Shown piece after piece: positions 5,432 through 60,760 of a stretch of DNA of 64,000 bases. The stretch comes from Klebsiella phage vB_KpM_FBKp24: the sequence record MW394391.1. One strand, 5' to 3'. Position numbers and translations under genes: made by a program. How positions within the stretch are numbered: position 1 is the stretch's first letter; every line of letters starts with the position of its first letter. The notes below the pieces were generated by a model. The model saw nothing but the letters and a program-made list of their open reading frames with translations, ran no database searches and was not told where the DNA came from.

Positions 5432-7141
5432 TTATGATAAGGTATGACGAATAATCATCCCAGCAGTAGCCAGTTGTAGGTCTACGCCGTTCACCGTACG
5501 TACCCAGTGGAGCAATGCCAATTTCCCAACAGTACCGCCTGTCGCGATCGTGAACGTGGTATTCCACGCAGAAATCGGTTGACGGACACGAATGTTGTCT
5601 ACCTGGAGGATAAAGTGCGTAGGTACCAGCGGTTCGCTTTCGGTTTCGGTATCGTACAACGGATGTAGCCGGTAGTACAATCGATCAAGCCATTCGCTTT
5701 GCGTTTGTGCACCCATACTCATATCCGTCGACCAAACCTGAGACGAGATATACTTCAAACGGCACTCAAGTGATCCGCCGTAGTCCTCGTCACCTATTTC
5801 GAAGTTGACAAACCAAGGCGATTCGACACCGCTCTCACCGTCAGCCATTAACGTAATGTCGTTTTTCTGAACATGACGATAACTACTAAAAGAACTGGAC
5901 ACTTTTGAAATATCCAGTGCAAAGGCCATGTGTTGTTTGGTGTTATAGAGCGTCGGATCCCAGACCGCCGACCCAGGTGCCGCTTCGAGAAGATCCGTTA
6001 CTTCGTACATCGCTAAACGATCGAGGCTTTGCATGAAATGACGAAGTTTGTAACCGTTACCGTTACTCTGCCATTCTGGGAACATAAAGAGTTTCACCGA
6101 ATAAGCATTTGGGAGCGTCACTGATTCAATGGTATACGCTACGGGAATAGTGCCCGAGGCAGTGGCCGTACCCTGATAACTTTCGGTACTGTCCAGCTGA
6201 TAAAACAGTGTCAGTGGACTGGTCTGCCCAGATTGAGTCGGGATGAACTCGCTCAAACCGGAAAGATAGATTTTACTACCATCGACCGGTTTGATCACTG
6301 AACTACCGTCGGTATAAGTCACCCTTACGCTAACATCAATCGATGTCATCAACAGATTAACAGGTACGTTGAGACGGTTCGGGTCGGTGGCACTTAAATA
6401 ACTACTGACCAGTGCAACAGAATCGATAGATCGTTTTGCCGAGTTAGATTGACGAATAATTCCTGAATCTACCACGGTCATGGTAAAGCGACTCGTCGGG
6501 AGCCCTGCCGCATCGTAGAAGATAACAAGAACGATTTCGCCGTTCTCAATTTTTCTCGTCGCATTAGCCGTAACGGGAATGCGGTAGTTACCCGTCGTGT
6601 CACCCTCAATGGTCATCAACGGGATTTCGTCACTCTCCAGTTGACCAGATTGGTTGTAGTACGCGGACAACACTTCCAGGTTACCGGTAGTGGATGTGTT
6701 AGAGAACACACGAACCTTTGTCGCGGTCGGCTGATAGGCTCTCAATAAGCTGTCGAAAGCCATCTCTGGCGGAGAGACAGTGTTATCAACGTAAACAAAG
6801 AACCCAGGTTGCGGGTAACGACTCCCGACCCCTAAAAGAATATCGATGGAGTTATCGATAGTCGTAGGGACGTTGTACGCGATCCAGGTCGATAACAGTG
6901 TTGACGTATCCACTTCAGTAACGATATAAAACCCAGAATTTTTATCGAAGATACGATCCCCTACTTTAGGGACGAATCGTCCGATGTTCCCCGAACCTAT
7001 TCCGGCGGGACCGACATAAATTTCAGAGCGCGCCCACTCTTTGTACAACCCGTTCGGGTTCCAGATAGGTACATCAGCTGGCGTATCGTCCGTTAACACC
7101 AGCGCGTATTGTACTCCACTTGTAGTGGTCGATGTGGCCAT
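5432..7141 (-). CDS. hypothetical protein, possible virion structural protein (569 aa)
   Basis: ORF track; Thr/Ser/Val-rich, beta-type composition; 1-bp spacing from upstream 852-aa gene. Confidence 0.5.
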   Translation of the reverse strand: MATSTTTSGVQYALVLTDDTPADVPIWNPNGLYKEWARSEIYVGPAGIGSGNIGRFVPKVGDRIFDKNSGFYIVTEVDTSTLLSTWIAYNVPTTIDNSIDILLGVGSRYPQPGFFVYVDNTVSPPEMAFDSLLRAYQPTATKVRVFSNTSTTGNLEVLSAYYNQSGQLESDEIPLMTIEGDTTGNYRIPVTANATRKIENGEIVLVIFYDAAGLPTSRFTMTVVDSGIIRQSNSAKRSIDSVALVSSYLSATDPNRLNVPVNLLMTSIDVSVRVTYTDGSSVIKPVDGSKIYLSGLSEFIPTQSGQTSPLTLFYQLDSTESYQGTATASGTIPVAYTIESVTLPNAYSVKLFMFPEWQSNGNGYKLRHFMQSLDRLAMYEVTDLLEAAPGSAVWDPTLYNTKQHMAFALDISKVSSSFSSYRHVQKNDITLMADGESGVESPWFVNFEIGDEDYGGSLECRLKYISSQVWSTDMSMGAQTQSEWLDRLYYRLHPLYDTETESEPLVPTHFILQVDNIRVRQPISAWNTTFTIATGGTVGKLALLHWVRTVNGVDLQLATAGMIIRHTLS

Positions 7142-7142
7142 G

Positions 7143-9701
7143 TCACGATTCCTTTATAAAGAAATAATCGTTAAGAGCAAGACGATTATTGAGATAGTAA
7201 AGATTGATGTTCTGTAAGAACTGCCAACGTTTCGTCGTGATTCCGACAGCGGATGAAAACGGGTGCGCATCGATGAAGATATAATTTGTGTTCCAGGTAC
7301 TCCTGCACGGGTCGATGTCTAAATACGCAGTGTACTTAGCCATGATCTTATCCAGAGCGACCTTATCGTTAACACTTAGAGGCTCACTGATCGTCCCGTT
7401 TTCAAGATCAAAGAGTAAACGGGTAATGACAACAGAGAACATTCTGTATCGTTCATTGATCGGGTTCGGTCCCGTTAATTCTTTCTCCGGGAATTTCAAC
7501 GTCATGTAATCATTAACGCGCTTATCGGACTCCGTGCCCATTTCAATCAGTTCCGCGTTGGCATTACTGGAAATACCATAAAGCGGGACATAAACCATTT
7601 CTTCAGAATAAGCCAGTCCATTAGGGAGTAACGGAATTTGTTTTTCATCCGCATCTTCGATGAACGGGACCGTACTGGGGTCTACTAATTTCCCATCGAT
7701 GACAGTCCGAATAACTTTGTCGTCTCGTACATCAAAACGCCCGTTAACACTGACATAACCGTGGTCAACAAATCCAATGCTTTTCGGAGGAGAATGGGTG
7801 ACAGTGGGCGTTTCCCAACCTAAACCAGCAAACGTGAATTTTTGCATCGAGCCGAGCGATTCGTCGTAATAACGATTAGTGATCAAAGTACCCTGATTAC
7901 CAGAAAGAATAAAATCAAGTCCTTCAATCAACGGATGACCGTTCATCCAAACACGTAATTGACGTGGTCGAATAGGTAGTACAGTTCCTGCGGTTTTACT
8001 GTAGGTCAAGGTGAAACGATAAATACCGTCCGAGCTGTCCACTAACTGATCGTAAACCAACGCATCCTTACTAGTGAGAATTAATCCCATGTTTCGTGCT
8101 TTAACGTGAATCCAGGTCACAACGTTATTCAGGACAGTATAGTGCGTTCCTTCGACAGCAGGCACCCATTCACCGGTTAAGACACCATTGTTAATAGGGC
8201 AGGTGAAGAAGTAGTATTGATACTTATCGTCCAATGTGGCGTTATCATTGCTCGGTGACCAAGTAATGGCTTTCGTCCCCCAACCAATAATCCCTTCCAC
8301 CAACGCCGCCGCTTCATCTTTCACGAAATACCGCTCTGCATAACCGTGTTTATGCCACCCCAGTAAAAGGCCGTTCTCGTCGTACTCAAAAAGCGTTGAG
8401 CAAAGCGACAGACCAAAAGGAACGTCGACGTAACCGCCGTTAGAGGAGGGAGTAACTTTCGTCGGGTTTAATGCAAACAGCGTAGCCAACGCATTGTAAC
8501 CGTACGCATTGATTACGTCGGTCGCTGTGAAGCTCGCCCAGAAGTTTCTCATGATGGCGGTATAAAGTGAATTTTCAAGATTTTCAACACGCCATTCTGT
8601 CAGCGTGGAATCAATCCCGATCATCGCCCTTAAAATGTCGGTATCACTTAAGCGGTAAAGGGTTTCGATTCGGTTGACTTCGTGAATCAACGGACGATTG
8701 TAACCGGACTCCCTCAGGTGTAGACGAATATAACAGTTTTCATACGACGTCCAGCCGTCATTGATGTAAGCAGAGACGTAACCGGTGGGAATACTGTAAT
8801 CGGCATGTGTGACGTTCCGTAAGCTGTTTTCTTTATTACGGTGGTAATAACGTCCGCTCAATGCGCTGGCACTGTCGACTTTGTAAAGGTAAAGATCGAT
8901 GTCGTCAACGTAATAAATTTCGTTGTCGTGGGTATTTTTACTCGGGTGCAGTAAATATTTCTTCAGATTATCCAGTGTTGACGTATAATCGTATAACGAT
9001 GAGATTTTAAAATCAACCACATGACTAACCGCAGAGTCGTAGAACGCCTCGATAAGATCCCCAATGGCAATGTCCGTGGATTTGATCTCAGGTTTCCAAA
9101 CCCCATTGTGAAAGATGTTCACAACGCCCGTTAACGCCTGCAGCGGCCGCAGTGCTGTAATAAACGTCGCAATATCGCTTTGACGGACGATTTCTCGTCC
9201 GAGATAAGCAATCTTTTTCCCGATATTGTTACTGCGATCCGAACGGAAAAAAGCGTTGTTGTAAATACGAAGATAAACTTTTTCTTTCGCCAGTTCCCAG
9301 CGTGTAGAATAGTCTTTGATCGCGATAATTAAATTGTCGTCGTAGGTCCGAAGAACGTAACTCGAAAACAAAGGGAGTTTGATCCCCGTTTCCAAATAGA
9401 GGTCAACAACTAAATCGTTGACCTCAGCGTAAGGCCCTAACGCCATCCATACCCCGCGTTTATCGGGAAGTCCTGTACGCCATCTGCTGTTATTCCCGAT
9501 CTGATAAAGATGGTAGACGTCGGTTTCTGTGGGTAACGGGGTGTCAACCCAAAGAATGGAATGAGAGACCTTTACCCCGCTGTCTTTCGTGATTCGTGTT
9601 AAGTCCAGGATTACTTGCCGATCTTGAATAGGCGCGCACCAGAGATTTGTACGTGCATGATCGAGAAGGAAACTTTCAGTAACTGAATTCATTACACGCA
9701 C
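7143..9701 (-). CDS. hypothetical large protein (852 aa)
   Basis: ORF track; tightly packed operon with 9710-10648 and 5432-7141. Confidence 0.55.
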   Translation of the reverse strand: MRVMNSVTESFLLDHARTNLWCAPIQDRQVILDLTRITKDSGVKVSHSILWVDTPLPTETDVYHLYQIGNNSRWRTGLPDKRGVWMALGPYAEVNDLVVDLYLETGIKLPLFSSYVLRTYDDNLIIAIKDYSTRWELAKEKVYLRIYNNAFFRSDRSNNIGKKIAYLGREIVRQSDIATFITALRPLQALTGVVNIFHNGVWKPEIKSTDIAIGDLIEAFYDSAVSHVVDFKISSLYDYTSTLDNLKKYLLHPSKNTHDNEIYYVDDIDLYLYKVDSASALSGRYYHRNKENSLRNVTHADYSIPTGYVSAYINDGWTSYENCYIRLHLRESGYNRPLIHEVNRIETLYRLSDTDILRAMIGIDSTLTEWRVENLENSLYTAIMRNFWASFTATDVINAYGYNALATLFALNPTKVTPSSNGGYVDVPFGLSLCSTLFEYDENGLLLGWHKHGYAERYFVKDEAAALVEGIIGWGTKAITWSPSNDNATLDDKYQYYFFTCPINNGVLTGEWVPAVEGTHYTVLNNVVTWIHVKARNMGLILTSKDALVYDQLVDSSDGIYRFTLTYSKTAGTVLPIRPRQLRVWMNGHPLIEGLDFILSGNQGTLITNRYYDESLGSMQKFTFAGLGWETPTVTHSPPKSIGFVDHGYVSVNGRFDVRDDKVIRTVIDGKLVDPSTVPFIEDADEKQIPLLPNGLAYSEEMVYVPLYGISSNANAELIEMGTESDKRVNDYMTLKFPEKELTGPNPINERYRMFSVVITRLLFDLENGTISEPLSVNDKVALDKIMAKYTAYLDIDPCRSTWNTNYIFIDAHPFSSAVGITTKRWQFLQNINLYYLNNRLALNDYFFIKES

Positions 9702-22230: not shown

Positions 22231-22291
22231 ACTTTCCTCTTAGACCTCTTAGGTCAGTAAATGGATGTTTAGTTATCAGAAAAGCGTTATA

Positions 22292-22350
22292 TCTTTCCTA
22301 TTTCACTGTAGCAATATATACATCAAAAAAACTGCATTTCGATTCTTAAG
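22292..22350 (+). promoter_or_regulatory. conserved promoter/leader element, copy B
   Basis: tctttcctatttcactgtagcaatatatacatcaaaaaaactgcatttcgattctt, near-identical to copy A. Confidence 0.45.
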
Positions 22351-22388
22351 AGTTTTTATGACCCCTTCTACAACACAGGCTCTCTACG

Positions 22389-37607: not shown

Positions 37608-37737
37608 GGACGATTAAATCGAGTAAATCAGACATAGTGTTTTAAAGCTCCATTGTTGTTAGTTGGACTAATTCCAATAGAGTGATATAGGTGTCAAATT
37701 AATTGGATTCCTCGTTAAAAGAGATGGCAAGTTTCCT

Positions 37738-40416
37738 ATGACTTTTGACCTATGTGATAAGGTAAATGAAATGAGTGATTTCGGGAATAAGATCAGCGAA
37801 TTAAATCCGTTGAGCGCAGGAAATATGGCGGGGGAAATTCCGTTAAGTTTAACACTGTCTAGCGGTACTTTGGCAACCAATAAAATCACGTTGAGCCAAC
37901 TCAGAGATCTTTTTGACTTCGATAGCGCATACAGCAGCGTAGAAGAAGGGATCGCTGCGACGGTAGAAAACCAAATGTTCTACGTTTACGTAGACAATAA
38001 TAAATTATCGGTCAATGAATACATCCGAACTAGCATTGGTGCGAACGCAGTCATCGGTAAAAGCGGCACTAAGAAAATTATTTATATTCCTGAACTACTG
38101 AAGCACGTCAAAGTGCAAGTAGAGAGTTTTACTGCACTGCGGGAGTTTAAACCGTGGTGGGAAGGTCAGGTAGTTTATCTGAAAGGGTACTACTCGGAGA
38201 GTACATCGGGGAGTGGTGACTTCATTGGTCATTTAGGAACAGCAACGGATGACGGCGGTGTCATCGCAGCGGGGTCGGGGTATTACTGGGAACGAAATGA
38301 CAGTAAGAATGTTATAGATGCTCAATGGTTTGGCGTTACAGCCGATGGCACCAATAAAGGGACTGAAATTAGTCGTGCACTCGATTTCATCTCTGTTCGT
38401 GGTGGGGAATTAAAATTCCCTAATGGCGAAATAAACTGGGGTACGCTCAGGAAAGTTTTTAACTATTCCGCCACTTTGAAACCGTTCACTTTATCAGGTA
38501 ACGGAGACAGCACCGTTTTTACGTTTGACGACGTCCCGCCCCCTACGCTACAAACTGGCGCTAATTGGGTTAAAGAATCACCGTTAATATCTTTTATCGG
38601 AACTAGCGGCGACAAATTCATTCCGAAGGTAGCCCTGAAGAATTTCTCTATGGACTATTCGCGACAGAAGAATAAAGGCGGGACGGATTTAACTACGCTC
38701 TCTGTGACACATCCTACTCCATATTCACTCGGGGTCTGGGGAATTTATTTCTTCTATGCCGATAGTCCGACGATTGAAAACGTGACCCTAAACAATATTT
38801 ACGGTGATGGGGTCATCATTAGGAAGTCATTCGAGCCGACAGTAAGAAACTGTCAGTTTTATAATGTTTCCGCTGGGAATATTATTGCGAGAACCGATGG
38901 TAACATGGCATCGGATTCGAACGGTGGGGCTATTTTCTTTTGGGCTTGCGTTGGTGGTCTTATCGATAATGTAACTGCTTGGAACCAACGGACTTATCAA
39001 GTTCATGTTAACTCAACCGATAACGGTACGGACGTATTTAACACATTGTGCGGTTACATTGGTATCTGGACAGAGTACCCGTGGGATCAAAACATGACAG
39101 CTAGTTCGCCAGAGACCGCACCGCCAAGAATGACTTCTATAATTTCATCAAGTAATTTGACAAACAATTGGGACAACGAAGCCAAGGGATGTACTATTCG
39201 AAATTGTACTGTTTATGGATATACTATCGGGATTAAATCGGAAGGATTTAGCGAAACCAATATTGTCAACAATATGGTTCTTAATTGCTACCTTCCTATT
39301 TTCCCGGCCAGTACTCGTGCAACTGTAGCCGATAATTTTACAGATATGCTCTACTGCGACAACCGGACTTGTCCGCAAGGTGGTTATCAAAGTATCCGTG
39401 GTCATCTTGTCTGCCATAACTACAGTACCGTCGATGACGGTGCGCGCAGAGGCGTTGAGTTCAGAGGTAATAAGTGCTATTGCGTATCGTACCCTGCTTT
39501 TAGGAGTAACCGGTCAGGATCGCTCTTCGTCGGCAATATGTTCAGGTTCGCACGTGGCGCGGCTGTTGCGATCGATACGACTATTAGTACTCTTGTTAAA
39601 GGCGTCATTGTTAGAGATAACACGTTTTTCTTTGATAGTACAATCAGCAGTACCGTGACTTCTAATATTTCTTATCATGACGGGCTTGTATTCAGTGGCA
39701 ACCGATTTGTCAATAAGTCGACCTCGTTAGTTACGATCGCATTTAGAAATAATTCAAAGAATGTTAAAATAGAAAATAACTTCTTTGAGGGTTGGTTTTT
39801 TGTAGCGTTACAGTGTACGGGTATTTTCGATAAGAACACTGTAGATGTTCAAAATCAACCGATTGCTAACAGTTATCATTTAGGTAATGTTTTTCAGGCC
39901 ACGGCGAGGGCGGTAATATCAAGGAATGAATTCAGAATTAACTCTTCTGCGACTAGTTCGCAAATTGTAGTTTCTTCAGATAATAGCGTATTTGAACGTA
40001 ATATTATACATGTACAAAATACGGGAACACCGACCTTGAATGGTTTAGTTTCATCTGAGTCCAGCGGAGCAAACCAAATTTTTGAAGGTAATTTGGTTAC
40101 GCAGAACCCGTTTAATACCGCCCTGTTCTACTTGAATACCCCGCACGCACCAACGTTTATCGGAAATGTCAATAGCGGTAATCTGATTTATATTTTCGGC
40201 ACCACTATTTATTCTCCTATAACTCTCGAACGTAACAGATGCACAGGGATATTTACTGCCCTAGCAACAGAAAAAAATACAGGTGTCAATCTTTCGTCTA
40301 AAGTGACGCCCTATGTTGGAATGAAGATGTATTACATTCTCCCTAATGCTAATGGAGCAGAAGGGGAAATATATACTGCGCAAGGATGGAAAACATTTGG
40401 TAGTATTACTGCTTAA
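37738..40416 (+). CDS. tailspike / depolymerase-like protein with right-handed beta-helix (pectate-lyase-3-type) domain
   Basis: QWFGVTADGTNKGTEISRALDFI matches the FGAKGDGxTDDT start of pectate_lyase_3 domains; N-terminal region paralogous to 57978-59960 (FIGHLGTATDDGGVIAAGSGYYW vs FIGVLGTKADDGGVVASGSGFYW); likely true start ATG 37771 (MSDFGNK) with aagg SD. Confidence 0.8.
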   Translation: MTFDLCDKVNEMSDFGNKISELNPLSAGNMAGEIPLSLTLSSGTLATNKITLSQLRDLFDFDSAYSSVEEGIAATVENQMFYVYVDNNKLSVNEYIRTSIGANAVIGKSGTKKIIYIPELLKHVKVQVESFTALREFKPWWEGQVVYLKGYYSESTSGSGDFIGHLGTATDDGGVIAAGSGYYWERNDSKNVIDAQWFGVTADGTNKGTEISRALDFISVRGGELKFPNGEINWGTLRKVFNYSATLKPFTLSGNGDSTVFTFDDVPPPTLQTGANWVKESPLISFIGTSGDKFIPKVALKNFSMDYSRQKNKGGTDLTTLSVTHPTPYSLGVWGIYFFYADSPTIENVTLNNIYGDGVIIRKSFEPTVRNCQFYNVSAGNIIARTDGNMASDSNGGAIFFWACVGGLIDNVTAWNQRTYQVHVNSTDNGTDVFNTLCGYIGIWTEYPWDQNMTASSPETAPPRMTSIISSSNLTNNWDNEAKGCTIRNCTVYGYTIGIKSEGFSETNIVNNMVLNCYLPIFPASTRATVADNFTDMLYCDNRTCPQGGYQSIRGHLVCHNYSTVDDGARRGVEFRGNKCYCVSYPAFRSNRSGSLFVGNMFRFARGAAVAIDTTISTLVKGVIVRDNTFFFDSTISSTVTSNISYHDGLVFSGNRFVNKSTSLVTIAFRNNSKNVKIENNFFEGWFFVALQCTGIFDKNTVDVQNQPIANSYHLGNVFQATARAVISRNEFRINSSATSSQIVVSSDNSVFERNIIHVQNTGTPTLNGLVSSESSGANQIFEGNLVTQNPFNTALFYLNTPHAPTFIGNVNSGNLIYIFGTTIYSPITLERNRCTGIFTALATEKNTGVNLSSKVTPYVGMKMYYILPNANGAEGEIYTAQGWKTFGSITA

Positions 40417-40417
40417 A

Positions 40418-40458
40418 ATAAATAAAGGGTGGGCCATTTGGCCCACCCTTTATTTTCT
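40418..40458. terminator. bidirectional rho-independent terminator (aaagggtgggcc/ggcccaccctt)
   Basis: 12-bp GC stem, A/T runs on both sides. Confidence 0.7.
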
Positions 40459-43692: not shown

Positions 43693-43725
43693 GTTAGGAT
43701 TCCTTAATTGGTTTAGTTAAACGGA

Positions 43726-43793
43726 AAGGTCTTTCCTTTCCTTATTCACTCTGGCTATATATACTTTAAAAAAAGTGCATTTCGATTCTTATG
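43726..43793 (+). promoter_or_regulatory. conserved promoter/leader element, copy C
   Basis: aaaggtctttcctttcc...ctggctatatatactttaaaaaaagtgcatttcgattctt shares 5-prime block, TATATAC box and tgcatttcgattctt leader with copies A and B. Confidence 0.45.
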
Positions 43794-43827
43794 AATTTTC
43801 AACTGACTAATAAAGGCTGAGCGCTTT

Positions 43828-54590: not shown

Positions 54591-56348
54591 TCAAATCCAT
54601 TGTGCCGCACGTTCACGGATAGTACGAATACTTTCCAGAATCTTCACATCGCCGTTCAGGTAAACTGTACGCATCGCGTCTCGCTCACTTCCGCGCAACG
54701 TTTCGTACTGCTCCCGAGTCAGATCGTCTTTCAGTGTTAGCGTTCCATCATCTTCACGATAGACAATCAGATACCCTTTTGCTGACTTCTTAGTACCGTC
54801 GTCAGTTTTAGGGTTCTTCGCGATGTTGTAGTGTTTACCGTTGACTTTACCGGCGGTTGCCTTCATGGCGATGCCCAGAGTGTCGCGAGTCACAAACTGG
54901 AACTCGAAACTCCCTACCCCAAAGACAACGTTAGAGCTACAGAATCCATTCTCTTTCAAACGGGAAAGGATCCGTGTCATGGTGTTGATGTTGATCGCAT
55001 CGCCATAGATCAAACCGACGTGCGGATCCAGCTCTTTATACCCAGCGGCATTTGTGGTTCCGCCGAAGATTTCCCAGAGTATCTGTACTGCACCCTTCTG
55101 CTCTTCGATAGAAATAGGTTTCCCTGTTTTAGTCGAATAGAATTGACCATCAACACAGAAAGATTCGAAATTACCAGACGTAGCATTTTGAATCGCGACA
55201 AATTTCGTAGCATCTAAAGCAGAAGCTCCCCCTAAAACGACCATCTCTTGGGAATTGTGATTATCGCCGTCCCAAGTGTATCCGCAGAGGATATGGTACG
55301 GATTCCCGGAATCTGGACGATAGACCAGTTTACCGTCACGCGCCATAATCGCATCTTTGTTTGCGATAGCTTTGGTGGTGATGGTGTCAAAGAAGTCATT
55401 CGTATCACTGACGAAGCTGAAAACGCCAGAAGGGTAAACTTCCGTGATCAGGCGTCGTTGGAATAATTCCTCCGCCTTCGAGAGTAACTCCGCTTCTGTG
55501 ACATTAGCGTATTCAGGGGTCGCCTTCAGCTCCTCTGCGTAAACTGCAATATTCAGACAGGTTACGCTGTGTTCTGTGGCTGGGACACTACCAGCGATTT
55601 CCGAGACCGATACGTCGCCTTCTGGATTATAGAAGCGATTCGCGGTCCAGACCGAAGGGAAGCTGTCGCTCCCTTTGAAATAGATCAGCTGACCTACTGA
55701 GCTGTTCGCATCGTCAAACATCCCCGACATTCCACGTAACGCGAAGTTATGTGCCTGGTAGTCAATGAACGCTTGCGCCGCACCCGTCTCGTTAGCGTAC
55801 TGCTCCAGTACACGGCGGAAGTGTAACGCTTTCGTTGCCAACACGCACGGTTTCCAGAGTTCGTTACTCCAGAGGTCTTCGAAGTAACCGGTCAGCCACC
55901 CAAAGCCGTCGACAGTGTTTTCAATCGTCAGGAATGGAACACGAATAGGGACTAATGACCCCTCCGGTACCGCACGAATTTCGAGCGGGATATAACCCAG
56001 TTCGTGCAGCTCTTTCAGATGCGTCGATTTCACCACGCCTTTACCCAGAACCCCGTCCATGTATTCGAGGTATTCAGCCTCTACCTGATTAAACGGCGTT
56101 TTGAAGAAGTTATCAAAACTCCCGACCAACCAGCGGAGCACTAAACGCTGCAGACCCATAAATACCGAACCGTCAAAGTCCAGTGGGGTATTGAAGTACG
56201 TGTGACTTCTGGCCGTCAGGTTTTCAAAGAAGCTGTCGGTACCCAGCGGTTGTTGGTTGATGTGCCCGGTTTTATAGGCGTCACAGAGCAGGAATACCAG
56301 CGGATCTTCGGTATAGAATTTTGGGTCTTTCAGTAAAGGATTGGTCAT
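54591..56348 (-). CDS. nadV: nicotinamide phosphoribosyltransferase (NAMPT)
   Basis: LLCDAYKTGH (cf. human LLATDSYKVTH), YRPDSGNP (cf. IRPDSGNP), LIYGDAININT (cf. VIQGDGVDINT); 585 aa; host-like codon usage. Confidence 0.9.
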   Translation of the reverse strand: MTNPLLKDPKFYTEDPLVFLLCDAYKTGHINQQPLGTDSFFENLTARSHTYFNTPLDFDGSVFMGLQRLVLRWLVGSFDNFFKTPFNQVEAEYLEYMDGVLGKGVVKSTHLKELHELGYIPLEIRAVPEGSLVPIRVPFLTIENTVDGFGWLTGYFEDLWSNELWKPCVLATKALHFRRVLEQYANETGAAQAFIDYQAHNFALRGMSGMFDDANSSVGQLIYFKGSDSFPSVWTANRFYNPEGDVSVSEIAGSVPATEHSVTCLNIAVYAEELKATPEYANVTEAELLSKAEELFQRRLITEVYPSGVFSFVSDTNDFFDTITTKAIANKDAIMARDGKLVYRPDSGNPYHILCGYTWDGDNHNSQEMVVLGGASALDATKFVAIQNATSGNFESFCVDGQFYSTKTGKPISIEEQKGAVQILWEIFGGTTNAAGYKELDPHVGLIYGDAININTMTRILSRLKENGFCSSNVVFGVGSFEFQFVTRDTLGIAMKATAGKVNGKHYNIAKNPKTDDGTKKSAKGYLIVYREDDGTLTLKDDLTREQYETLRGSERDAMRTVYLNGDVKILESIRTIRERAAQWI

Positions 56349-57235
56349 TTCACGCGTCCATCTTTAGCGGTTAAATAGGATTGGGTTGGTAACCCGTCGT
56401 CGGTGATGTTTTCCCACCACACGTTAGTCGAGAAAATCTGATCGAAGGCAGCGGAAAGCTCGCCTAGTCCTTTCGAGAAAATACCGTGAGTCACGAAGAG
56501 ACTGAGCGATTTCGGGCTCTGAGTACTGAGCTTTTTCGCCAGCTCAGTGAAGGTCCACCCACCATCGCAAATGTCATCAACAACCAACAGATTACGACCT
56601 TCGATATTGTCGTTGTCCAGTAGCGTAATGTCGAGGATATTGCCGGTTTTGGTATCGCGCTTTTTGTTTGCATAAACGATAGGCGCACCACCCAAGAGTT
56701 TCGCCAGCTCTTCAGTTTTCTTCGCAGCGCCACCGTCAGGGGAAACTAACACGACGTTATTCTCCCGAATCCAATTGGCCAGGAGATTAAAGACTATTTT
56801 GGACTGCTCCAGAACGACGAGGTTTTTGATCAGGGCCGGGGTGACGTTAGAGTGCGGATCGTGTATCAACACTCGGTCTGCTTTCAGGCTGTTGAACAGC
56901 TCTGCGAATACGCCGAGGGAGAACGATTCTCCTGCATTACACACGCGGTCTTGGCGTGCGTACGGGAAATACGGTACGGTTAAATGAAGTTCTGTTTTCG
57001 CCGTATATTTACCAATACGACGAATAGCATCGACCAGCAGCAGTAAGCGGACTGCCTCACTGGAAGATTTGATACTTCCTTCTATTTTAACGATACCAAT
57101 ATCGTGCGGAGGAAGACCGTGGCGATTAATTGCAATATGTTCTTCCCCGCCCGGGAACGTTAAGTTTTCATAAAGGACGGGTTGTCCATCGAACGTAACT
57201 TTAAACATTGTAACCCCTTTAAAAATGGTAAACAA
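56345..57235 (-). CDS. prs: ribose-phosphate pyrophosphokinase (PRPP synthetase)
   Basis: PRPP-binding loop NLLVVDDICDGGWTF (cf. VLIVDDMIDTGGT); 296 aa; 4-nt overlap with nadV. Confidence 0.9.
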   Translation of the reverse strand: MFTIFKGVTMFKVTFDGQPVLYENLTFPGGEEHIAINRHGLPPHDIGIVKIEGSIKSSSEAVRLLLLVDAIRRIGKYTAKTELHLTVPYFPYARQDRVCNAGESFSLGVFAELFNSLKADRVLIHDPHSNVTPALIKNLVVLEQSKIVFNLLANWIRENNVVLVSPDGGAAKKTEELAKLLGGAPIVYANKKRDTKTGNILDITLLDNDNIEGRNLLVVDDICDGGWTFTELAKKLSTQSPKSLSLFVTHGIFSKGLGELSAAFDQIFSTNVWWENITDDGLPTQSYLTAKDGRVK

Positions 57236-57796: not shown

Positions 57797-57977
57797 TGTG
57801 AGTTACCTTTCAGTGAGTTCAAAATAAAAAACAGAAACGTGATAATAGAGAGAGACGAATGTCTACCTGCCTAGTTTTAAAACTAATTCCTGAATATATC
57901 GGCGTAGGATAGGTTCTACTATAGTTTGATTCTTGTGACAATAACCTCACTACTAGCCCGGTTGGGCAGGAGATGAA

Positions 57978-59960
57978 ATGAGTACCAACTTTATATTCAT
58001 GCCAAATAATCAGTTCAGGTTGGTCGATAATGGTCGTGTCGCTAACGCTGGGAAGCTTTATATCGGTAAAGCAAACACAGATCCTACAGTCGCTGCTAAT
58101 CAGATAACCGTTACTGGTCTTGCCATTGACGGTACAAACAGTATCTTAAATCAACCAATTAATTTGGACAAGCATGGTTTCCCGTTGGACGAATTGGGAA
58201 ACGTAGTGACATTATCAGTTGACTCGCACTATAGCCTTGCTATCTTTGACGCGTACAGTAAACTACAACAATCAGTCAGTGCAGTGGAAATTAATGAGGT
58301 CGAGAGTTTTTCCTCCCTGCGTACATTACCTGTTCTCCGCGCCGGTCAAAGAGTTAGAGTGAAGGCTCATACAGCCGGAACTTCCTTGGGTGGCGGGGAG
58401 TTTATCGGTGTGTTGGGTACAAAAGCTGATGACGGCGGCGTTGTGGCCTCAGGTAGCGGCTTTTACTGGGTGAGGGTTATCAACGGTGTGGTAAATGTCG
58501 ATAACTTCGGCGCGCGGGGCGACGGGAGTGCAGACGATACTAACGCTATTCTCGCCGCACTTAACTACGCCATTGCTAATGGTATCTCCGTAGAGTTTAC
58601 CGCGAATAAAACTTACAAGATTACCGGCAGTACCGGGCTCAGTTTTGATATTGGTAAAATTTCCGTTGGTTGTTACAATGGTCGGGCTAAGCTGGATTTT
58701 AGCGGCTTCACTGGTACTACCGCTATCAACGTTTATTCTTCGTTAACTTATCCAACCTCCATGTACAGAAATACCACAAACCGTTTAATAGGACTGGAGG
58801 TATTTGGTGGGTTAACTACCGGGGTAAATGGGTTGTTAGTCGGTAATGACACTTACGATTACAACGGTCAAACTATTATTCAAAACTGTTCGTTCTTCCG
58901 GTTTGATAACGTGGTACTTTGCGCGAAGAATACGTGGCGAACCAAGTTTATCGCTTGTACGATTTCTACCGGGATAAGTAATATATTTTACGCGCCATCT
59001 GGTATTCTTAATTCTGGTGAAAGTATTACATTTAGCGATTGTCAGATTAGTGATTCTAATAACGCCCCTTTCACGGTTGCTTGCTCAAACTTCGCGATCG
59101 GCTTTATTGGTTCGTCGGTATTGAACACTCGATTAGTCATCAGCGGTTCGGGTAGCGTTGTCAGTATCGAAGGGATGAGTAATTTTGAAAACCCCAATGC
59201 CAAAAACTACTATCGGTTTGCTGAAGTTACCGGCGCCGGAGCGCGGCTGATTATCAGTTACTCAACGGTGGTCTGTAACACCCCTGCTATCCAAACAAAA
59301 CCACTATTTTACGTAGGGGCAAACGCATTCATCATTTTCAATGGAGTTAAACTCCAAGGTAATAGTTATCCTTTCGAATTGGATGCTACAGGACCAGGTA
59401 ACCGCCGGTGGATAGAAGGACCAGGATTTGTTTTTGCCACGGGCTGTACTTGTGATATTCTTTCTGGTGCAGGTAATATCCCGCTACATGAATCATTATC
59501 GCCGATTCGAAATTGGGATTTTGAAAGTGGTGATTTGAGTGACTGGGCTATTAATAACTCAGGATCTTCTGCTCAAACCGCGGTAGTATCGTCGACTTCC
59601 AGTAAAGTAGGTACGTATGGTTTACGGTTAACGTCAGTTAGCGGATTGAATATCTTCGCTACGTCTACATTTAGCGTGAAACCGGGTAGGTACTTCGCCA
59701 CCAGTTTCTGGGGACGAGTTGTTACGGCTAATGCCGGGGCAACGTCTGCAGGTAACTTAACACTCAGTTTTAAAACGGACGCAGGCGTGCAGATTAATGC
59801 ATTAACTGCTAATCTTCCTTCGAGTGTTACCGACTGGGCAGTTTACGGTGCCTTCATTCAGGGAGTTGTCCCACGTGGTGCTGCGAGAGCGGAGATTTCT
59901 TTACGAGCTTCTCAGGGCGCAGTTGTTGACTTTGATTCGGTTCTTTTCAATATGTTTTAA
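57978..59960 (+). CDS. tailspike / depolymerase-like protein (beta-helix) with C-terminal carbohydrate-binding-like domain
   Basis: VDNFGARGDGSADDTNAILAALNYA is a canonical pectate_lyase_3 start motif; N-terminal region paralogous to 37738-40416; Gly/Ser/Asn-rich beta-helix composition; 660 aa. Confidence 0.8.
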   Translation: MSTNFIFMPNNQFRLVDNGRVANAGKLYIGKANTDPTVAANQITVTGLAIDGTNSILNQPINLDKHGFPLDELGNVVTLSVDSHYSLAIFDAYSKLQQSVSAVEINEVESFSSLRTLPVLRAGQRVRVKAHTAGTSLGGGEFIGVLGTKADDGGVVASGSGFYWVRVINGVVNVDNFGARGDGSADDTNAILAALNYAIANGISVEFTANKTYKITGSTGLSFDIGKISVGCYNGRAKLDFSGFTGTTAINVYSSLTYPTSMYRNTTNRLIGLEVFGGLTTGVNGLLVGNDTYDYNGQTIIQNCSFFRFDNVVLCAKNTWRTKFIACTISTGISNIFYAPSGILNSGESITFSDCQISDSNNAPFTVACSNFAIGFIGSSVLNTRLVISGSGSVVSIEGMSNFENPNAKNYYRFAEVTGAGARLIISYSTVVCNTPAIQTKPLFYVGANAFIIFNGVKLQGNSYPFELDATGPGNRRWIEGPGFVFATGCTCDILSGAGNIPLHESLSPIRNWDFESGDLSDWAINNSGSSAQTAVVSSTSSKVGTYGLRLTSVSGLNIFATSTFSVKPGRYFATSFWGRVVTANAGATSAGNLTLSFKTDAGVQINALTANLPSSVTDWAVYGAFIQGVVPRGAARAEISLRASQGAVVDFDSVLFNMF

Positions 59961-59983: not shown

Positions 59984-60014
59984 CCCTAGGGGATCCGTAA
60001 TGGATCCCCTAGGG
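59984..60014. terminator. perfect 13-bp palindromic hairpin (ccctaggggatcc gtaat ggatcccctaggg); T-run only on minus-strand side
   Basis: Lies between tailspike stop (59960) and stop of the convergent minus gene (60038); acts as rho-independent terminator mainly for the minus gene. Confidence 0.55.
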
Positions 60015-60037: not shown

Positions 60038-60760
60038 TTATTTAAACGCCGGGTGAAGTTTGATCACTTTCACTTCCGCAGCGAGAGCTTTGTCAGCTTT
60101 GGCTTCGGCGAGGTCGATGGCTTGCTGGAGGTTAACCCAGAATTCGACAGTGGTTTTGGTGGCTTTTGCCAGGCGGTAGGCGGTGCGGATGGTCAGTTTG
60201 GATTTACCGTCGAGCAGACGCGACAGCGTTGACGTTGCCAGGCCGATGTGTTTGGCGAAATCAGTCGGGGCGATACCAGCGGGTTCCAGGTACTCTTTCA
60301 GGAGAATTTCACCTGGAGTGGAGGGTTTGCGTGCTTTTGCCATTTTTTGGTATTCCTTTGGTTTATAAGGAGAAGTTAGTGGTGCGTTGTTACACAATAC
60401 TACTTCTTGACGTGAAAGATTACCCGGAAAGAGAATCGATCCGACGACGAAAATCTCTTGTTTTAAACCGTCCGGGGTATTACGGAACAGCGTAATCTGA
60501 TTTTTGTTTTTCGCCAGAAGATCGGTGAGTAGTTTCACGTAATAATCTGACGGGTTATCGAGATCGCGTAGCAGGAGAACCTCGGCTTCCGCGAAACTGA
60601 TCCTCTTCTCCTGCACTATCGACATTTGCAGCGGGAACTTCAGTTTATGGACCAGGATATCGTACGGTAACGAAATCACCTCTTTCGGATTATTCTCTTT
60701 ATCAAGAATATACCGATTGAGTTCTTCGTCTTTGATGTCTTTGTTCACGTAGTGAATCAT
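60038..60760 (-). CDS. HigA-type (HTH-XRE antitoxin-like) domain protein, in-frame fusion with unknown 139-aa N-terminal domain
   Basis: C-terminal 100 aa (from internal ATG 60343 with AAGGA SD) MAKARKPSTPGEILLKEYLEPAGIAPTDFAKHIGLATSTLSRLLDGKSKLTIRTAYRLAKATKTTVEFWVNLQ matches HigA/antidote HTH family (PGEIL.EEFLEP.G.S...LA..LGV....I..I..GKR.I....ALRLA..FGTS.EFWLNLQ); this part uses host-preferred codons, N-terminal part does not. Confidence 0.6.
   Translation of the reverse strand: MIHYVNKDIKDEELNRYILDKENNPKEVISLPYDILVHKLKFPLQMSIVQEKRISFAEAEVLLLRDLDNPSDYYVKLLTDLLAKNKNQITLFRNTPDGLKQEIFVVGSILFPGNLSRQEVVLCNNAPLTSPYKPKEYQKMAKARKPSTPGEILLKEYLEPAGIAPTDFAKHIGLATSTLSRLLDGKSKLTIRTAYRLAKATKTTVEFWVNLQQAIDLAEAKADKALAAEVKVIKLHPAFK

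Follow-up and report, generated by a model that had tools for sequence, protein, structure and literature searches.

Which hosts a Klebsiella phage can infect is set by its capsule depolymerase spikes. These proteins are under development as enzymes, and also as exchangeable components of phages engineered for therapy. Here we describe two genes for such spikes in a 64,000-nucleotide stretch of DNA from Klebsiella phage vB_KpM_FBKp24 (record MW394391.1; the whole stretch is hereafter the window): spike 1 at locus 1 and spike 2 at locus 2. An earlier note, made from the letters of this DNA, had proposed that the two genes encode paralogous tailspikes whose host-range determinants are swapped as modules. 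Comparison with relatives and with solved structures now makes it very probable that they are two of approximately ten receptor-binding tailspikes of this phage, exchanged modularly at conserved sites and each targeting its own capsule.

The closest described enzymes are the K2-2 tailspike protein (K2-2 TSP; PDB 8IQ5/8IQ9) and, as the group nearest to spike 2, the K2(/K13) capsule depolymerases of the KLPN1 gp43/phiKp24 gp196 type. Mutagenesis of K2-2 TSP identified E267 and E323 as catalytic with a contribution from D278, and its residues 15-85 form a “putative particle-binding domain” (PMC10936425). The same small domain, hereafter the dome domain, is the “baseplate binding domain” of DpK2 (residues 191-316). 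In RAD2 DpK2/Depo32 (7LZJ, 7VZ3) and Pantoea WceF (6TGF) a β-helix follows it, as in both spikes, although the catalytic β-helices of DpK2, Depo32 and WceF have no sequence similarity to those of the spikes and WceF is a bacterial protein. The same overall anchor-neck-β-helix plan is found in P22 gp9 and Sf6 gp14, but P22 and Sf6 are podoviruses in which a single type of spike docks on the tail hub, whereas the window derives from a jumbo myophage.

Among jumbo phages, phiKp24, phiK64-1/RaK2 and Centimanus resemble the window phage in possessing many β-helix receptor-binding proteins with related docking N-termini and different catalytic domains. Centimanus has been reported to encode nine depolymerases (PMC13436347), and phiKp24 carries a main cluster of receptor-binding-protein genes together with the outlying gp168 and K2-like gp196 (PMC9700779). 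Multi-depolymerase Klebsiella jumbo phages, anchor sharing with C-terminal diversification, catalytic domains shared across morphotypes, and receptor-binding-protein genes outside the main cluster are all documented already (PMC9700779; PMC13385381; bioRxiv 10.64898/2026.05.12.724579). The spike pair is a clear example of this well-known host-range mechanism, which is not in itself new.

To which group does the window phage belong? The flanks of both spike genes are 95-99% identical to DNA of Klebsiella phage vB_KpM_Centimanus (299.7 kb genome) and ~79% identical to LPKP23, MJ359 and the KpLz/KpZh/KpXa/KpYy phages. The tail sheath encoded in the window has 99.7% identity to that of Centimanus and ~28% to phiKZ-like sheaths, and split RNA polymerase β-subunit genes are present in Centimanus. 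KpLz-2_45 is the type of the genus Siatvirus, which was transferred to the Chimalliviridae by ICTV in 2025. By sequence, the window phage is a Siatvirus-like Klebsiella jumbo myophage of the phiKZ type (Chimalliviridae), ~300 kb in size and nearest to Centimanus; phiKp24 and Alcyoneusvirus are lineages unrelated to this phiKZ-like relative.

Spike 2 and the K2-2-Type Depolymerases

Spike 2 aligns end to end with K2-2 TSP over its residues 101-658 (phmmer against PDB sequences: 8IQ5, E 6e-68). Its AlphaFold2 (AF2) model, with a predicted local distance difference test score (pLDDT) of 88.0, superposes on K2-2 TSP with a template modelling (TM) score of 0.92 and a root-mean-square deviation of 2.1 Å. 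The two proteins have in common the dome domain, a nine-rung-type β-helix, a C-terminal β-sandwich and equivalents of E267, D278 and E323. Sequence identity is 29% to K2-2 TSP and 47-49% to KLPN1-type enzymes (47% to KLPN1 gp43), and the protein falls in the PHROGs “tail protein” family (E 7e-147). Ahead of the dome lies a domain matching Pfam Head_binding (PF09008; residues 6-98, 50 bits against a 24-bit cut-off), to which the N-terminal domains of P22 gp9 and Sf6 gp14 correspond; spike 1 has no such match. Spike 2 differs from K2-2- and KLPN1-type enzymes, which have siphovirus or podovirus anchors, in combining a P22-type head-binding anchor with a chimallivirus host genome. A full-length copy of spike 2, 99% identical, is present on a Logan contig of 2456 bp from a public sequencing run (P0032), so the fusion of head-binding domain and K2-like enzyme exists elsewhere too.

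By this alignment E348 (59019-59021), D359 (59052-59054) and E404 (59187-59189) of spike 2 correspond to E267, D278 and E323 of K2-2 TSP, and the equivalents of all three are invariant in KLPN1 gp43, whose host capsule is K2, and in the KPN8 homologue. Spike 2 is most likely a retaining glycoside hydrolase of the K2-2 TSP/KLPN1 gp43 type, acting through E348 and E404 with D359.

Structure prediction gives a β-helix in both spikes, with tailspike depolymerases as the top Foldseek matches, in agreement with the fold anticipated in the earlier note. That note's narrower assignment to the pectate-lyase-3 type fares less well: the pectate-lyase-like family PF12708 matches spike 2 below threshold (18.6 against 27 bits, residues 172-202) and spike 1 not at all, and the FGAxGDG...DDT motif ascribed to both proteins occurs in spike 2 whereas spike 1 has FGVTADG. 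The galactose-binding-like domain predicted at the end of the 660-residue protein is borne out as a β-sandwich, which matches CBM_4_9 below the Pfam threshold and the carbohydrate-binding modules CBM61 and CBM16 with TM scores of 0.70-0.75.

Spike 1 and the Question of Activity

The spike 1 model (AF2 monomer, 29-sequence alignment; pLDDT 82.9) is confident over residues 114-881 and consists of one long β-helix from approximately residue 190 to 840; the Pfam match is Beta_helix (PF13229). The best Foldseek matches in the PDB (E ~1e-10) are Depo32 7VZ3, DpK2 7LZJ, Fri1 gp49 6C72, WceF 6TGF and CBA120 TSP2. TM scores against the nearest solved structures are only 0.2-0.4, because the helix lengths differ. 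By its modelled fold, spike 1 is a tailspike depolymerase. Homologues of spike 1 are present in VLCpiA3d and vB_Kp_H01 (47-48% identity) and in K51PH129C1 (32%); no experimentally assigned capsule specificity was found in the literature searched. The gene probably starts at the ATG at 37771 (MSDFGNK...), since this codon is conserved in all relatives, is annotated as the start in Centimanus and has AAGG upstream. In the longest open reading frame (ORF) 33 nt (37738-37770) precede this start, and the 11 extra codons, which overlap the conserved TTTCCTATGAC block, are probably untranslated.

Could one or both spikes be catalytically inactive, glycan-binding β-helix fibres that serve as adhesins? 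The case for this is made by spike 1, in which no catalytic residue can be assigned by homology, the nearest structures are as distant as described above, and the C-terminal half (residues 567-840) is a regular asparagine-ladder repeat with few conserved polar residues. However, seven acidic residues of spike 1 (E269, D295, D382, D417, E435, E491 and D622 in the 881-residue numbering) are at least 93% conserved among 16 catalytic-domain sequences with 33-89% identity to the query, and the block at residues 269-622 that contains them fits an active site. Spike 2, for its part, retains the complete catalytic triad known from the K2-2 TSP experiments. The catalytic acidic residues sought in both proteins can thus be placed by alignment in spike 2, while spike 1 offers conserved candidates, and an inactive fibre at either locus appears improbable.

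A Shared Dome Domain and Two Unrelated Anchors

BLASTP of spike 1 against spike 2 yields one significant alignment, of 102 residues at 40% identity (E 5e-17), between residues 127-227 of spike 1 (positions as reported alongside the 892-residue ORF) and 107-207 of spike 2. It contains the exact motif FIGxLGTxxDDGGVxAxGSGxYW that the earlier note had described as common to both proteins and had placed in an N-terminal adaptor. The motif is confirmed but its placement is not: by sequence comparison the shared region is the internal dome domain. Pfam PF27114 (Phage_tail_beta) is named there from precomputed annotations on P0001 (89% identical to spike 1) and P0032 (99% identical to spike 2), and in both spikes the region belongs to the PHROGs “EPS depolymerase” family. 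A tblastn search of the window with the shared region finds just two copies, those of spikes 1 and 2. The dome domain also occurs in siphovirus, jumbo-phage and bacterial (WceF/AmsF) proteins, and WceF aligns with residues 22-218 of spike 2, covering a head-binding-like region and the dome.

The N-termini proper are unrelated. Homology between the two anchors (residues 1-115 of spike 1, 1-100 of spike 2) was considered and rejected (hhalign probability 0.1), and no mutual sequence similarity was detected between the β-helices. Paralogy therefore holds for approximately 100 residues but not for the N-termini or the β-helices.

Pfam and PDB searches with the N-terminal module of spike 1 gave no match, but at least five other receptor-binding proteins of Centimanus carry the module, with 27-32% identity. 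In that genome the spike 1-type N-terminus is present in at least six receptor-binding proteins and the dome domain in seven, counts that are lower bounds since positions 50-206 kb and 236-250 kb lay outside the scan. The number of receptor-binding proteins counted here agrees with the nine depolymerases reported for Centimanus (PMC13436347). Among those scanned, the locus 2 spike alone carries a head-binding domain.

Module Replacement at Two Conserved Sites

Gene order around each spike is conserved in every relative examined, with 8 genomes compared for locus 1 and 9 for locus 2, and this synteny extends to metagenomic contigs L021-L024. Module types were scored in these genomes by all-against-all comparison of the first 215 residues and of the remainder. 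The N-terminal 215 residues are 63-100% identical among relatives at locus 1 and 48-100% at locus 2, whereas the C-terminal parts comprise at least four mutually unrelated types at locus 1 and at least six types at locus 2, where one pair is weakly similar (32%). The K2-like module of the window spike 2 is the sole one of its type among the nine genomes, and metagenomic contigs carry further C-terminal variants at the loci. The same division is seen in the databases: P0016-P0026 and P0060-P0062 share a spike N-terminus but have other C-termini (in the spike 1 group P0016-P0025, N-termini 58-87% identical and different C-termini), while homologues of the spike 1 catalytic domain (~50% identity) sit on other anchors, including a T7 tail-fibre N-terminus. 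Database homologues of spike 2 split alike into N-terminus-sharing and catalytic-domain-sharing groups.

Centimanus has different modules at both sites despite the near-identical flanks, and the breakpoints were mapped against it (Table 1). Relative to Centimanus, the 5′ breakpoint of locus 1 lies inside the dome domain and the 3′ breakpoint falls where the terminator ends, whereas the replacement at locus 2 takes in the entire gene together with its 5′ region. With the flanking genes unchanged, the locus 2 spike is on the plus strand in the window and six relatives but on the minus strand in Centimanus and KpZh_1. The oppositely oriented spikes show 48-53% identity in the N-terminus and have unrelated C-termini and different 5′ regions. 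These comparisons support a swapping of catalytic modules at two conserved sites, and the modular exchange suggested in the earlier note is upheld: N-termini are conserved and C-terminal types at the same sites are unrelated. Unlike phiKp24, the window phage belongs to a group in which the outlying sites are shown to be conserved with serial replacement, and in which locus 2 occurs in both orientations.

In Centimanus most genes for receptor-binding proteins are grouped in a single cluster that spans the two ends of the record (286.6-299.1 kb and 0.1-8 kb), and loci 1 and 2 lie apart from it, at 210 kb and 230 kb. Serratia phage Moabite is a more distant relative; its best match belongs to a spike cluster and is not at a PhoH or DHFR locus, so the outlying sites may be specific to the Siatvirus group.

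As a separate observation, spike 1 of the window and of LPKP23 (L003) are 92% identical in the catalytic part and 81% identical in the N-terminal 215 residues at the amino acid level, while the locus 1 region including flanks has ~79% nucleotide identity. The catalytic part may be the more conserved because the module was transferred more recently, or because it is under stronger selection.

The distance of the two genes from the main cluster (~55-75 kb in Centimanus coordinates), their orientation opposite to the metabolic neighbours and the existence of structural relatives such as WceF that are free bacterial enzymes might all be explained if both genes encoded soluble, non-virion depolymerases, produced from units of their own amid early or metabolic genes and either released at lysis or acting in the envelope of the infected cell on capsule or biofilm. 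Yet both loci preserve their N-terminal modules through exchanges of the enzyme part, a signature of structural attachment constraint. In addition, the spike 1 N-terminus is a module of the main-cluster receptor-binding proteins, and that of spike 2 is a P22 gp9-type particle-binding domain. A soluble role for both proteins is, on this evidence, highly improbable. A programmed, invertible host-range switch at locus 2, of the Mu Gin or P1 Cin type with two orientations as two states, would account for the opposite orientations among relatives between the same flanking genes but is scarcely credible and was rejected in favour of replacement, because the oppositely oriented genes are different sequences with different 5′ regions, flanking inverted repeats were not found (the best pair being 13 nt at 85%), and neither a scan of flanking genes nor the Centimanus annotation of the locus revealed a recombinase domain.

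A Proposed Explanation

Tailspikes attached to the virion and exchanged as modules remain the preferred explanation. Each spike would dock on the tail-fibre apparatus through a locus-specific N-terminal anchor, that of spike 1 being a lineage-specific module common to most other receptor-binding proteins of the phage and that of spike 2 resembling P22 gp9. The small conserved dome would cap a trimer and, because all spikes share it, could offer homology for recombination. Beyond the dome, a variable right-handed β-helix is predicted to bind and cleave one capsular polysaccharide, followed in spike 2 by the carbohydrate-binding-module-like β-sandwich. Recombination with other Klebsiella podo-, sipho- and jumbo-viruses, possibly within the dome, would replace the catalytic module, or the whole gene with its regulatory ends, and thereby direct the phage to different capsule types. 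The two spikes are likely to differ in glycan specificity, since the catalytic domains are unrelated and one of them resembles K2-capsule hydrolases: spike 2 probably targets a K2 or K2-like capsule and spike 1 a different glycan.

Several observations weigh against parts of this proposal. In K2-2 TSP, R331 forms a salt bridge to the glucuronate of K2, and this position is Y412 in spike 2 (the next residue is R413); D264 and S327 of K2-2 TSP are replaced by Asn and Ala. Spike 2 is, moreover, only 29-49% identical to enzymes of K2-infecting phages, and this low identity, along with the changed substrate-contact residues, makes its K2 specificity uncertain. KLPN1 gp43, from a phage with a K2 host, also has Tyr at the position of R331, so Arg331 may be a feature specific to the K2-2 subfamily, and a K2 or K2-like specificity is plausible. 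As regards anchoring, residues 1-113 of spike 1 are modelled at very low confidence in the AF2 monomer, and the depositors of WceF, which has the same N-terminal domains, presented it as an enzyme that modifies glycans, not as a spike of a phage. As regards expression, a promoter consensus for the spikes could not be defined from scans of the upstream regions. A sigma-70 scan returned 10 and 8 matches against 8.2±3.1 and 4.0±2.4 in shuffled sequences, with no clear enrichment; CTATGAC, found upstream of the sheath gene and of spike 1 and beside the locus 2 hairpin, is not enriched either (5 copies against 5.4 expected, one of them in coding DNA). Because no promoter consensus is established, we infer the independent late transcription of each spike from orientation and spacing, plus the hairpins.

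Features of the Two Loci

The coordinates of the features are collected in Table 1.

Table 1. Spike genes, domains, flanking signals and replaced segments, in window coordinates.
Feature	Position	Strand	Basis or description
Spike 1 5′ intergenic region	37608..37770	+	putative promoter region; blocks GCAATAGrGTGATATAG and TTTCCTATGAC conserved across relatives
Spike 1 coding sequence	37771..40416	+	881 aa from likely start; longest ORF 37738-40416, 892 aa
Spike 1 N-terminal anchor module	37771..38115	+	aa 1-115; KISEL...P...TL..LR..F..AY...FYVY.D
Spike 1 dome domain	38116..38418	+	homologous to DpK2 residues ~199-284 and to the K2-2 TSP particle-binding domain
Segment replaced relative to Centimanus, locus 1	38169..40449	.	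identity ends at 38168 and returns at 40450
Spike 1 right-handed β-helix	38419..40413	+	Pfam Beta_helix, AF2, Foldseek
Locus 1 hairpin	40420..40455	.	perfect 17-bp stem, A-run before, T-run after; between convergent genes
Segment replaced relative to Centimanus, locus 2	57848..59959	.	identity ends at 57847 and returns at 59960; whole gene and 5′ region
Spike 2 upstream near-palindrome TTCTTGTGACAATAA	57930..57944	.	15 bp, ~35 nt before the ATG
Spike 2 coding sequence	57978..59960	+	660 aa; most likely a K2-2 TSP/KLPN1 gp43-type capsule depolymerase
Spike 2 P22 gp9-like head-binding domain	57993..58271	+	Pfam PF09008, aa 6-98
Spike 2 dome domain	58296..58598	+	alignment with spike 1; PF27114 by near-identical protein
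Spike 2 β-helix, receptor-binding/catalytic domain (predicted)	58599..59483	+	phmmer, K2-2 TSP alignment, AF2 and Foldseek
Spike 2 C-terminal β-sandwich (carbohydrate-binding-module-like/galactose-binding-like jelly roll)	59484..59957	+	weak CBM_4_9, AF2 and Foldseek
Locus 2 hairpin	59984..60014	.	perfect 13-bp stem; backbone DNA conserved with Centimanus

Both ORFs are real and stand, as first described, on the plus strand amid minus-strand metabolic genes. These neighbours encode thymidine kinase, PhoH, NAMPT, phosphoribosyl pyrophosphate (PRPP) synthetase, DHFR and a helix-turn-helix (HTH) regulator; terminase, sheath and other virion genes are at 3-14 kb of the window. The gene order is DprA-like gene, spike, two small ORFs and PhoH at locus 1, and (NAMPT, PRPP synthetase) DHFR, spike and HTH regulator at locus 2. 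The GC content of the spike genes (42.4% and 45.1%, against 44.5% for the window) is uninformative as to a foreign origin.

The earlier note had given each gene a terminator hairpin of its own, a claim that stands for locus 1 and less well for locus 2. The locus 1 hairpin (dG -31 kcal/mol, z = -6.9) has the sequence features of a good bidirectional intrinsic terminator. It is borne by the cassette; the hairpin that Centimanus has in this position is a different one. The locus 2 hairpin, downstream of spike 2, is as stable but has a T-run on the minus strand and none on the plus strand, and for this reason most likely terminates transcription of the HTH gene (60038-60760); possibly it stops spike 2 transcription as well.

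Upstream of spike 2 a 15-bp palindrome, TTCTTGTGACAAGAA, is present with one mismatch in the window and precedes each of the plus-oriented locus 2 spikes in the six GenBank relatives (L004, L005, L007-L010). It is kept although the spike genes downstream differ; the near-palindrome TTCTTGTGACAAKAA, one of the blocks that relatives share in the 5′ regions, is seen only upstream of plus-oriented locus 2 spikes. The palindrome was not found with minus-oriented variants nor in the other DNA compared, and may serve as an operator, conceivably one bound by the neighbouring HTH regulator. The 9-mer ACTAATTCC precedes both spikes by ~90 nt, but the window shows no enrichment of it.

Other Observations in the Window and Its Relatives

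A conserved intergenic element of ~70-90 nt (...GTTTAGTTA...TTTCCTATTTCACTGTAGCAATATATACATCAAAnAAACTGCATTTCGATTCTTA...) occurs at window positions ~600-690, ~22260-22370 and ~43705-43800, where it precedes three plus-strand ORFs (starts 695, 22389 and 43828), and is not upstream of the spikes. Its 21-mer core is identical at 642 and 22301, with 0 copies expected by chance, and the repeats probably represent a promoter or other regulatory element of the phage. Directly beside locus 2, the minus-strand genes at 54591-57235 encode NAMPT and PRPP synthetase; NadR and PnuC are also encoded by Centimanus. We take these genes to resemble a phage set for NAD+ salvage or reconstitution, of the kind linked to counter-defence. 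In the metagenomic relative L022 (SRR21633404) the PhoH gene adjoining locus 1 (6895-8802) encodes 635 residues against ~270 elsewhere. Its length and a weak match to LAGLIDADG_3 suggest an intein or homing-endonuclease insertion.

Implications for Siatvirus-Like Phages

Current understanding of the evolution of receptor-binding proteins is unchanged by these spikes. Modestly new are the fixed replacement hot-spots at two outlying sites of the Siatvirus group, the acceptance of either orientation at locus 2, the mapping of the locus 1 5′ breakpoint inside the shared dome domain, and a chimallivirus spike with a P22-type head-binding anchor that is absent from the other receptor-binding proteins. 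A more far-reaching proposal, possible but doubtful at present, is that Siatvirus-type chimalliviruses keep two dedicated plug-in sites away from the main tail-fibre cluster. Whole spike cassettes, comprising the gene, its 5′ control region and, for locus 1, the terminator as well, would be exchanged there with unrelated Klebsiella phages, and locus 2 would accept them in both orientations. The locus 2 spike would dock through its podovirus-style P22 gp9 domain on a separate site of a nucleus-forming jumbo myophage. If so, two anchoring systems independent of each other would coexist in the branched receptor-binding apparatus, and one of them could be reprogrammed while the main cluster stayed as it is. 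To the known diversity of capsule depolymerases the window adds a chimallivirus protein in which a K2-like enzyme is joined to a P22-type anchor, and a clean natural experiment in which catalytic modules have been serially replaced on conserved anchors at two fixed sites with mapped breakpoints. These sites point to places in the genome at which a jumbo phage of this kind might be deliberately redirected to new hosts.

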